From the NCBI RefSeq assembly GCF_036507355.1, contig NZ_AP027877.1: a stretch of 64,000 nt of DNA; one strand, written 5' to 3'. The stretch's first letter is position 1, and each line of letters opens with the position of its first letter. Positions 40,401 to 43,400 of this stretch are shown here, piece after piece. This stretch comes from Escherichia coli (lineage in GTDB: Bacteria; Pseudomonadota; Gammaproteobacteria; Enterobacterales; Enterobacteriaceae). Position numbers: made by a program.

Positions 40401-43400
40401 ATCATCCAGTTTGATTACATTATAGCCACCATAGAAGGGGCCAAAAAACGAAACCTTCAATGCTGCAGTTTTAGTATCTCCAGTAAAGTATGCTTTACCT
40501 TCGCTCTCGCTCCATTTATTTTTCGTTGGATCGTATCCACGGTTAAGTACACGAATCCCTCCGTCGTTCCGTTTTCCATAAGTAGCGCTGACCTGTTCCA
40601 GATCACGTTCGAACCGGTTCTCGAGGCGAGCTATTTCATACCATTTTCCGAGGTAGCGGTTGGCGTCAAAATTTGTAATCGGCTGCACACCTTTAGGTGG
40701 TGTCGGGGCCTTACATGCTATAAGAGTGAAAGAGAGTGCAATGCCAGTCAACACAGGCCATAACTTCATAATAAATCCTGTACTTTTGATAGTTGAGAGT
40801 AAGTATGAAAGATAGATGATTACGACCGATCACTTAAAGAACTTTCATACTATATTAGGAATAGTCCATAACAGAAAAATTGTCAGTGATGACGCCAGAA
40901 AGGCAATTTATTCCGTGCACTACACAGTTTATGTGTTAATGAATTAGTCAAGGGGGAGAATATGATAAAAAAACCTGTGATTGGAATCAGCGGTTGTTTG
41001 GCCGGTTCTGCTGTTCGTTTTGATGGTGGTCACAAAAGAGCTGACTTTTTAATGGACAAATTAGTGGAATGGGTAACATTCAGACCAGTATGTCCGGAAA
41101 TGGCTATAGGGCTGCCAGTTCCGCGTCCTGCTCTACGTCTTGTGCGCTCGACGCAAGGAAATATACGGATGTGTTTCAGCCACGACCAGAATGAGGATGT
41201 GACAGAGAGAATGACAGAGTTTAGTCGTTCTTATATGGACAAATTAAAGGATGTATCGGGGTTTGTGGTTTGTGCTAAATCTCCCAGCTGTGGCATGGAG
41301 CGCGTGCGTGTCTATGATGAAAATGGTAATCGAGGTCGTAAAGATGGAGTGGGACTATTTACGAGTACTTTGATGGAAAAGTTTTCCTGGCTACCGGTTG
41401 AAGAGGATGGGCGATTACATGATCCAGTGCTTCGTGAGAATTTTGTTGAAAGAGTTTTTGCTTTGCATGAGCTCAATCACCTTTACAAGGAGAAATTATC
41501 AAGAAGAGAGTTATTAGCTTTTCATAGTCGTTATAAGCTTCAGTTGTTGGCGCATAGTCAGGCAGGCTATAAAGATATGGGACCATTTGTGGCTGCAATA
41601 CACGAGTGGGCGGACCTTGAATCATACTTTGAGGTGTATCGTGATAAGCTGATGGCGATTCTCAGAAAACCTGCATCACGTAAAAATCACACGAATGTGC
41701 TGATGCATATACAGGGGTATTTTAGTAACTACTTAAGTACACGCCAGCGTAAAGAGTTGAGCGAGGTTATACTTAACTATCGTTCTGGCACATTACCTCT
41801 TCTTGCGCCGTTGACTCTGCTGAAGCATTATCTGGGTGAGTATCCTAATGATTACTTGCTTACACAGAATTACTTCGATCCCTATCCGGACGAACTGGCT
41901 CTAAGACTGATGGTAAATTAATTGTATGCGATATCATCCAAAAGGATGAGTTCCTGCATGCAGGATATTTACAATCGTAAAAACTACACTATGATACCCA
42001 GAGTGTCAGTTTGTATAAAAACTCTGTTTACGCTGAAGAAACAATTGAGATGCAACTTAAAGTTGGTAAACATGCCAGTCAAAATATATAATATTATGAT
42101 TCCACGCAGCTATATATAATATAACAGATTGGTTTAATAATTTGTCTTTGTGAGTTAAATACATAATTTTATACTTGTGATGCAATGAAATTTTCCTTAT
42201 TGTTGAACTGGCGAATATTGATTTTCCACCTATACTTACCTGGTGTAACCCCAATGATATCAGGTGGATAATATGCCATACATATGTTCTATCATTTTGG
42301 TGTTGAACTCGTTTGATGTCCGAATTGGTAAAGAAGATATTTTGTTTAAAAAAGGAAGTGCTGTTCTCATTGATTACAATTTAAAAGATTTTTTTTCATC
42401 AAATATAGATCATGTAATGATCGTAGATGTTGAAGAGAAAACAGTTAATGATTTCTTTAAAAGCAACACACTCTCACCTTTTTCTGTAAGAAGGTTTTAT
42501 CCGGCATACTTGATGGTGGAATGTGAAGATTTTTCATTGTTAAAGAACTTGATTGCATGCTTGAATTGTGATGGCAGAACTGTGGATTTTGTTAGAAATC
42601 AAATATCACTTGCATGTCTTGCTATCTTATCTTCAGAGAAAATAGTGCAAAGTTTTTTATTTGGATGTCTTAATAGTTTAGGAAGTAAAGTTAAGGCTAT
42701 TATTCACACGGATATATCTGCAGCATGGAGACTTTGTGATATATCTTCAAGACTGTATCTGAGTGAAAGTCTGTTAAAAAGAAAATTAAAGCACGAAGGC
42801 TTATCATTTAGTAAGTTAATTCTTGAAGAGCGAATGGTGATGGCGGAAAGGTTATTAAGCTACAATTTATATTCTGTTGGAAAAGTTGCTGAGATATGCG
42901 GTTATGAAAACACGTCATATTTTGTGAGTGTTTTCAGAAGATATTTTGGTGTTCCTCCCCATCAATATTCATCAAGATTTTTTTTAGAAAAAGACATGAT
43001 GTAACATGATGCGTTTTAATGATTTTGTAATTTTCGTATTTGATAATTGTATGATGCTTTCAGCTACGCCAGAATAATCGCTGGCGTTTTTCTTTTTGAA
43101 TAGATGTTCAAGCCTTACGCTAATGTAACTTCTATACCTTTCCTCTTCGTTCCGAACCGTGTACACCATCCGTTATTTGCGGAGGTGAGGCTATGAAATC
43201 TATGGATAAGTTAACAACGGGCATTGCCTACGGCACCTCCGCAGGCAGTGCTGGCTACTGGTTTTTACAGTTGCTCGATAAAGTCACGCCCTCACAGTGG
43301 GCAGCAATAGGTGTGCTGGGTAGCCTGGTATTTGGCCTGCTGACGTACCTGACAAACCTTTATTTCAAGATTAAAGAAGATAAGCGCAAGGCTGCGAGAG

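Follow-up and report, generated by a model that had tools for sequence, protein, structure and literature searches.

What does an AraC-type regulator gene do for Escherichia coli when it is carried between the antiterminator gene and the holin gene of a prophage? The question is raised by a stretch of 64,000 nucleotides of contig NZ_AP027877.1 (RefSeq assembly GCF_036507355.1), called here the window, in which a gene of the AraC/XylS family, designated araC, occupies positions 42273-43004 of the plus strand. The gene encodes an uncharacterised and widespread new member of the PatE/Psr family, a known group of AraC regulators carried by prophages. This gene is intact, is under purifying selection and is carried by phages and prophages, and its product is homologous over its full length to regulators of E. 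coli O157. On balance, we lean towards reading it as a moron of temperate lambdoid phages that encodes a lysogenic-conversion regulator, which would feed the gadE/hdeA acid-resistance node.

The gene product and its relatives

The open reading frame (ORF) called for the gene is 42264..43004 (+), with a GTG start and 246 aa, the length given to an AraC/XylS regulator by an initial annotation of this DNA. The AraC/XylS gene is real; the length of its product is most likely 243 aa, read from the ATG at 42273. This ATG is favoured because the Shine-Dalgarno sequence AGGTGGA (42262-42268) lies five bases 5' of it, because the RefSeq protein of the identical gene (WP_001146308.1) begins there and because homologues align from it. 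The stretch 41922-43004 is made of 351 nt of non-coding AT-rich DNA and one ORF. A 65-aa ORF with a TTG start within 41922-42272 was considered as a gene and rejected as unsupported.

The protein ends in a domain of roughly 100 aa that carries two helix-turn-helix (HTH) motifs and is typical of the AraC/XylS family (Pfam HTH_18, residues 161-237, E-value 2e-14; HTH_AraC, residues 203-235, E-value 5e-7). The DNA-binding domain with its double HTH covers residues 136-235 approximately (42678-42977, +), and is preceded by an N-terminal regulatory domain (residues 1-135 approximately; 42273-42677, +). The whole protein matches phrog_1450 (E-value 3.5e-107), a PHROG family with no assigned function. 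Its assignment to the PatE/Psr branch draws on the Pfam and phrog_1450 matches, on an NCBIfam YdeO profile and on homology to a regulator of O-island 8.

The closest O157 relative is this O-island 8 protein, WP_000246059.1 (247 aa; 54% identity over 235 aa, E-value 2e-88), whose gene is the only AraC gene of the thrW prophage remnant, at 309 kb in EDL933 and at 332 kb in FRIK2455. According to a review, patE is Z0321 of O-island 8 (PMC10877973), and WP_000246059.1 is presumed from its island position to be PatE. WP_000301797.1 of EDL933, an HTH protein of 237 aa encoded by O-island 57, is 40% identical over its full length (240 aa, E-value 2e-55) and is presumed, again from island position, to be PsrB (Z2104). 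The names PatE and PsrB are used below in this sense. The initial annotation had likened the regulator to the PatE and PsrA/PsrB types; this likeness is borne out by homology to both proteins that goes beyond the HTH and includes the N-terminal domain.

The window protein and PatE are 72% identical in the DNA-binding domain and 39% identical in the N-terminal domain. In the putative recognition helices, whose segments were picked by eye, no alignment to MarA or to any other solved complex being used, the two proteins agree at 13 of 14 residues in the first segment and at 9 of 14 in the second. Both regulators are prophage-borne and about 245 aa long, with the same two-domain layout and a CS(V/I)IL motif, and both genes are preceded by a -10 element TATACT and a Shine-Dalgarno site GGTGGAT. 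They differ in position: patE lies at the tail-fibre/invertase end of the thrW prophage remnant, whereas araC lies between Q and the holin gene. They differ also in that targets of PatE (hdeA, gadE) are known from experiment, whereas those of the window protein are proposed by analogy. PsrA and PsrB (Z1789 and Z2104; O-islands 50 and 57) are likewise prophage-encoded AraC-like regulators. The presumed psrB gene is found in the same slot as araC, after a DUF1133 Q-like gene and before lysis genes, although its product belongs to a more distant clade than PatE.

The comparison with the Psr regulators was made with the O-island 57 gene. Reviews give psrA as z1789 of O-island 50, prophage CP-933N. 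PsrA was left out of the comparison, as it was not located in the re-sequenced EDL933 genome NZ_CP008957.1: no AraC-type gene is annotated at 1,625-1,690 kb (CP-933N), and a six-frame check of the first 24 kb of the prophage, with 180 aa as the minimum length, found no AraC-like ORF. The slot after the Q gene of CP-933N holds a TerB pseudogene in this genome. A 2.3-kb EDL933 'phage' record (OR845495; HTH match of 41%) was considered as a Psr gene and rejected, being an adiY-like chromosomal fragment (80% to E. coli adiY).

Beyond the prophage regulators, the window protein aligns end to end in a multiple alignment with GadW (33%), YdeO (30%), AppY (30%), EnvY (26%) and GadX (25%). The chromosomal acid-resistance regulators YdeO, GadW and GadX, and AppY of prophage DLP12, belong to the same branch: both domains are alignable at 25-33% identity, and the window protein has SESLLKxKL and S(T/V)SYF, the motifs of the recognition helices, in common with them. 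An N-terminal motif CS(V/I)IL...SFD is common to the window protein and its aligned relatives. In a neighbour-joining tree, the clade of the window protein is sister to the PatE clade and the PsrB clade comes next; AppY with GadW, YdeO, and GadX with EnvY are placed outside. The NCBIfam YdeO profile (NF007407) is matched at positions 1-234 of 253 (E-value 7.4e-37). The protein is a relative of YdeO and not its orthologue, because the score of 127.3 bits is far under the cut-off of 348; its GadX score is 85 bits, against a cut-off of 500.

A protein of strain Nissle named 'PatE (CIW80_12240)', whose overexpression raises acid resistance (bioRxiv 10.1101/2025.08.01.668021), was considered as the product of the window gene and rejected, because it seems to be orthologous to GadW. 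By its tag it lies two genes away from gadA (CIW80_12250), and the primers used for quantitative reverse-transcription PCR both map inside K-12 gadW. The RefSeq tag CIW80_RS12240 corresponds to bcsZ, the numbering of the two tag series being different.

The N-terminal domain had been described as unrelated. It has no Pfam model, yet it is typical of the YdeO/GadW/AppY/PatE branch and has a predicted fold like that of Rns and ToxT. An AlphaFold2 model built from an alignment of 18 sequences (mean predicted local distance difference test score 88.5; predicted template modelling score 0.83) places N-terminal strands at residues 3-54 and 79-82. Foldseek matched this model to Rns, CsvR and ToxT over both domains (E-values 5.5e-11 to 4e-7), and it superposes on the DNA-binding domain of GadX with a root-mean-square deviation of 1.0-1.4 Å. 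ToxT was also found by sequence search, from residue 22 on. The match to Rns, CsvR and ToxT, which are virulence regulators of solved structure, is one of fold: sequence identity is 17-20%, the template modelling score is only about 0.43 owing to a different orientation of the domains, and the regulons differ. Ligand-responsive regulators of the Rns/ToxT type have an N-terminal beta-sandwich and, where the two domains meet, a pocket for fatty acids.

Distribution, alleles and selection

The araC region was found by megablast in 1085 of 5426 complete E. coli genomes (about 20%), with at least 99% identity in 585 of them and up to three copies per genome. Humans, dogs, cattle, ducks, soil and sediment are among the sources of the matching genomes. 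Commensals, strains from animals and the environment and multidrug-resistant clinical isolates are all represented, and the gene is not confined to pathogens.

The isolated 47.9-kb phage IdasGreatGrand carries this cassette, Q and the holin gene included, with an AraC protein that is 99.2% identical; the cassette is also carried by a series of lambda recombinant phages (AraC protein, 82.7%) and by E. coli prophages with lysis modules of the Qin or DLP12 type. The description of the gene as phage cargo thus stands, the order Q-blc-ybgA-araC-holin recurring in IdasGreatGrand, in the lambda recombinants and in several prophage backgrounds. The three features that bear on phage or prophage carriage are the position of araC in the Q-holin slot of a prophage integrated at argW, the near-identical gene of IdasGreatGrand and the match to phrog_1450.

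Three allele groups of araC differ by 11-13% at the DNA level, with 0.29-0.57 synonymous substitutions per site (dS) and ratios of non-synonymous to synonymous substitution rates (dN/dS) of 0.22-0.27. A dN/dS of about 0.25 over a dS of 0.3-0.57 indicates that purifying selection acts on the protein. One allele is 76% identical to the window protein in the N-terminal domain and 91% in the C-terminal domain, and another 87% and 81%, which suggests recombination inside the gene, between the regulatory and the DNA-binding halves.

Could the regulator serve the two cargo genes with which it travels, blc and the TudS-DUF1722 gene (ybgA)? It would then control one or both of them, the three genes being a single accessory module. 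AraC-family genes frequently regulate their neighbours, and in four or more prophage or phage backgrounds the trio follows one and the same type of Q. Their histories nevertheless differ. Across the loci compared, identity is 96% in the Q-blc-ybgA segment, 87-89% in the araC coding sequence and 58-78% in the araC leader, and the break falls exactly at the ybgA stop codon. Since identities drop at this codon, araC with its own leader and terminator is a separate mosaic unit, with a history distinct from that of Q-blc-ybgA. In addition, blc and ybgA do not accompany the relatives at 64%, 56%, 54% and 40% identity. Those at 64% and 56% are encoded directly between other Q types (PF03589 and PF06323) and the holin gene, and the PatE-type genes of O157 and of phage PhiR70_1 follow tail-fibre genes. 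Because relatives occur without blc and ybgA or at the tail-fibre end, the regulator is, as far as these comparisons go, independent of the two genes and usually, not always, located in the cargo slot between Q and holin. Control of the neighbouring cargo is therefore an unlikely main role.

Expression signals and prophage context

The AT-rich non-coding leader/promoter region of araC (41922..42272, +) was characterised by consensus scan and conservation. It includes a distal promoter-like site, TTTACA-16-TATGAT (41968-41995, +), that is kept in all five alleles, and a proximal one, with -35 CTGGCG at 42208-42213 and -10 TATACT at 42231-42236 (+), recognised by scan and by its conservation in the family. 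The proximal arrangement, TTGGCA/CTGGCG-17/18-TATACT, is kept in seven of eight family members, PatE included, down to 52% protein identity. The rest of the leader diverges to 58-78% identity. The case for a promoter rests on this conservation of the promoter-like sites, because promoter-like matches are no more numerous in the araC region than in shuffled sequence; promoter function is thus predicted. A hairpin followed by a run of T resembling an intrinsic terminator was found by scan 62 nt past the araC stop codon (43066..43097, +; hairpin, 43066-43087). It is essentially conserved in five allele sequences while its flanks diverge; the 89% allele has a single stem substitution, with which a G-U pair can still form.

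The base composition also sets the gene apart. GC content is 30-33% over 41900-43100, against 45-52% in the flanks and 43-48% in the neighbouring genes. As the initial annotation had noticed, this DNA is strongly AT-rich: no other 1.2-kb stretch of the window has a GC content as low as its 31.8%, the overall value being 47.8%. GC at third codon positions is 27% in araC, and the density of A/T tracts is 2.4 times that of the window. Promoter-like sites, a terminator-like hairpin, a slot between phage genes and a deviating GC content are the features expected of a moron, and araC appears from its sequence to combine all four.

The cassette has the order Q, terminator-like hairpin, blc (on the minus strand), TudS/YbgA gene, araC, terminator-like hairpin, EssD-type holin gene, lysozyme gene, Rz. 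The Q gene (39712..40089, +; 125 aa) was identified by phrog_79, 'anti-termination protein Q-like' (E-value 1.3e-51), and by the RefSeq annotation 'antiterminator Q family protein' in a matching locus; its ATG at 39712 was chosen from an alignment with three other loci, the ORF as called beginning at a TTG (39697). It is followed by a candidate late-promoter region (40061..40211, +) in which consensus scans found a promoter-like site (40061-40090) and a hairpin (40188-40211). This segment is nearly invariant among four loci and, by analogy with lambdoid phages, would be a pR'/tR' pair; the hairpin could alternatively end the convergent blc gene. Blc is an outer-membrane lipoprotein of the lipocalin Blc family (40245..40769, -; NCBIfam NF007786, E-value 7.8e-94, 312 bits for a cut-off of 267; phrog_2809). 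The following cargo gene (40962..41921, +) encodes a fused 2-thiouracil desulfurase (TudS/DUF523)-DUF1722 protein of the 'YbgA family', identified by Pfam and PHROG (PF04463, residues 7-149, E-value 1.6e-39; PF08349, residues 192-309, E-value 2.2e-40; phrog_3275 over the full length). The pair of blc and the TudS-DUF1722 gene is 96% conserved among differing prophage backgrounds and is also found in a viable phage.

The lysis cassette begins with an EssD-type class II holin gene (43193..43408, +; RefSeq annotation of the matching locus and ORFs), continues with a lysozyme gene (43408-43905, +; ORF and lysozyme family match) and includes an Rz-like gene (ORF from 43890, +). The araC stop codon (43004) is 189 nt before the holin gene, in agreement with the first description of the locus. 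A consensus scan found no promoter-like site between this codon and the holin gene. Because the sole candidate late promoter/terminator pair is just after Q and none precedes the holin gene, Q-dependent late transcription would have to cross the cargo, araC included, to reach the lysis genes. An Rfam scan of 39-44 kb found no credible RNA family.

This position lends some weight to a role directed at the phage itself, in which the regulator would adjust either the choice between lysis and lysogeny or the phage's late or lysis genes to host physiology. Members of the family are found repeatedly between antiterminator and holin genes, after Q proteins of four families (phrog_79, PF03589, PF06323, DUF1133), and araC would have to be co-transcribed with the late genes. 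The interval between Q and S is however a general landing place for cargo: it holds nmpC in DLP12 and stx in the Stx phages (PMC8065619). Copies of the PatE type are found at the tail-fibre end, and every characterised relative acts on host genes (PMC10877973, PMC10057817). A function in the phage cycle is accordingly improbable.

The prophage that hosts the cassette ends at an integrase gene and at argW, a tRNA-Arg(CCT) gene (55780-55854). It is decayed, because its collinearity with the intact prophage that another strain carries at argW is limited to 39.7-51.1 kb and part of the head-tail region is deleted. The internal deletion relative to this prophage is of about 4.2 kb, from capsid to tail-sheath genes, and similarity ends at 51.1 kb. 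In the 35.5-55.8 kb region, an IS3 transposase gene (36428-37237) is found at the left edge, where intact relatives carry dsdA, csc genes, torI and early genes. The exact structure of this prophage was reproduced by no complete E. coli genome searched, and no effector gene was seen among the ORFs and annotated features examined in it. A second very AT-rich patch (about 32% GC) corresponds to a 374-aa ORF (53199-54320, -) adjoining the integrase gene; it has no NCBIfam or PADLOC match and may be another cargo or defence gene.

Given such a host, araC might be baggage, permanently silenced by H-NS or weakly functional and devoid of any natural phenotype. The extremely low GC content, the weak -35 element and the state of the prophage, with its IS3 transposase gene and missing tail genes, all fit. 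An inert gene is nonetheless not expected to evolve with a dN/dS of about 0.25, to be intact in about a thousand genomes and in viable phage, or to keep promoter-like elements, a Shine-Dalgarno site and a terminator. Inertness is as doubtful as a role in the phage cycle.

A further possibility concerns the control of expression. The sequence TCCACCT (42225-42231) is complementary to the AGGTGGA Shine-Dalgarno sequence and is invariant among alleles. A hairpin sequestering the Shine-Dalgarno sequence was considered and rejected: the folding z-score is about -1.3, shuffles give p values of 0.03-0.25 for the complementary 7-mer and the position differs between clades. Conservation of the TCCACCT block is more simply explained by the -10-like TATACT, conserved family-wide, that the same block contains. 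The Rns/ToxT-like N-terminal domain, the late-operon position and the presence of this complementary sequence upstream of the predicted proximal start site (near 42243) led us to propose, as a long shot, a signal-gated switch: the N-terminal domain would respond to a metabolite of the gut, for instance a fatty acid, transcripts arising from Q-dependent read-through would be translationally muted and those initiated at the gene's own promoter would be translated. If this were true, lysogenic conversion would be separated from lytic expression.

EvgAS proximity and the acid-resistance node

The window carries, before the prophage, yfdX, frc, oxc, evgS (27886-31476, -), evgA (31484-32095, -), emrK and emrY, followed by the IS3 transposase gene. 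EvgS, EvgA, YfdX, Frc and Oxc were identified by NCBIfam equivalog matches above their cut-offs, and EmrKY was also confirmed by NCBIfam. The initial annotation was right in placing the EvgAS cluster in the same window, evgA being about 10 kb from araC, and had considered cross-talk between the two conceivable.

The whole window was searched, with at most three mismatches, for what we take to be the EvgA box consensus, an 18-bp inverted repeat (TTCYTACANNTGTARGAA); this consensus was validated solely by its control matches. Four matches were found, for 0.68 expected by chance in the window: two upstream of yfdX (starting at 21300 and 21338; 21300-21355), one upstream of frc (22328-22345, perfect) and one between emrK and evgA (32320-32337). 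These fall at the known EvgA-controlled promoters of yfdX, frc and emrK-evgA. In 41.9-43.2 kb no match with at most three mismatches was found, and araC in this respect differs from ydeO. Direct control of araC by EvgA is thus not supported by the sequence. Membership of the EvgAS circuit, in which EvgA would directly activate araC as it does ydeO and the 10-kb distance would be meaningful, is very improbable even though the best NCBIfam match of the protein is to YdeO, itself an EvgA target, since the box is absent near araC, although four control matches were found elsewhere, and since the cassette is also known from sites other than argW and from a free phage. The proximity that had suggested cross-talk follows from the use of argW as attachment site; other prophages and a free phage carry the cassette as well. 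Any interplay with EvgAS would, by analogy, take place through convergence on gadE and not through EvgA acting on araC.

The reading that we favour, a lysogenic-conversion regulator acting at the gadE/hdeA node, takes its content from the relatives. PatE and PsrB bind the same region of the hdeA promoter, are activators of both gadE and hdeA and raise acid resistance; type III secretion is repressed by PsrA and PsrB, with GadE and YhiF as intermediates (PMC10877973). gadE is a direct target of AppY, and YdeO, GadW and GadX converge on it (PMC10057817). We infer the target set of the window protein, the silencing of its gene by H-NS and the use of promoters. In a lysogen, araC would be transcribed from its own weak promoter of the sigma-70 type; silencing by H-NS is likely because of the GC content of 32%, and expression would then be conditional. 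Late transcription modified by Q would read through araC, so that the protein would also be made during lytic growth, as for stx. It would bind AT-rich operators by means of two HTH motifs, which share 72% identity with those of PatE, and switch on the acid-fitness regulon of the host from the promoters of gadE and hdeA, a node shared by PatE, PsrB, YdeO, GadW/X and AppY. In strains carrying the locus of enterocyte effacement, type III secretion would be lowered indirectly.

Several points weigh against this reading. Identity to PatE is just 54% (39% in the regulatory domain) and the second recognition segment is identical at 9 of 14 positions; the operator set could, on sequence grounds, differ from that of PatE. 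The PatE and PsrB labels of the two EDL933 proteins rest on island position, their RefSeq records giving neither a gene name nor an old locus tag. Promoter-like matches, as said above, do not exceed those of shuffled sequence, the acid-fitness island lies outside the window, and a literature search found no published study of, or experiment on, this protein. Control of the neighbouring cargo, a role in the phage cycle and inert baggage are each still less likely than a conversion regulator, because of the independent distribution of the gene, the alternative positions of its relatives and purifying selection.

About one fifth of the complete E. coli genomes carry this gene or one of its close alleles. 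PatE, PsrA/B and AppY, to which its product is related, indicate that such prophage regulators can reset acid resistance and, in enterohaemorrhagic E. coli (EHEC), type III secretion. The gene would leave current concepts unchanged and would carry a familiar theme over to a far broader range of strains. The acid-resistance reading is directly testable in K-12 with the viable carrier phage IdasGreatGrand; if it is true, survival during stomach passage would be altered, well beyond EHEC, in lysogens of a common family of lambdoid phages.

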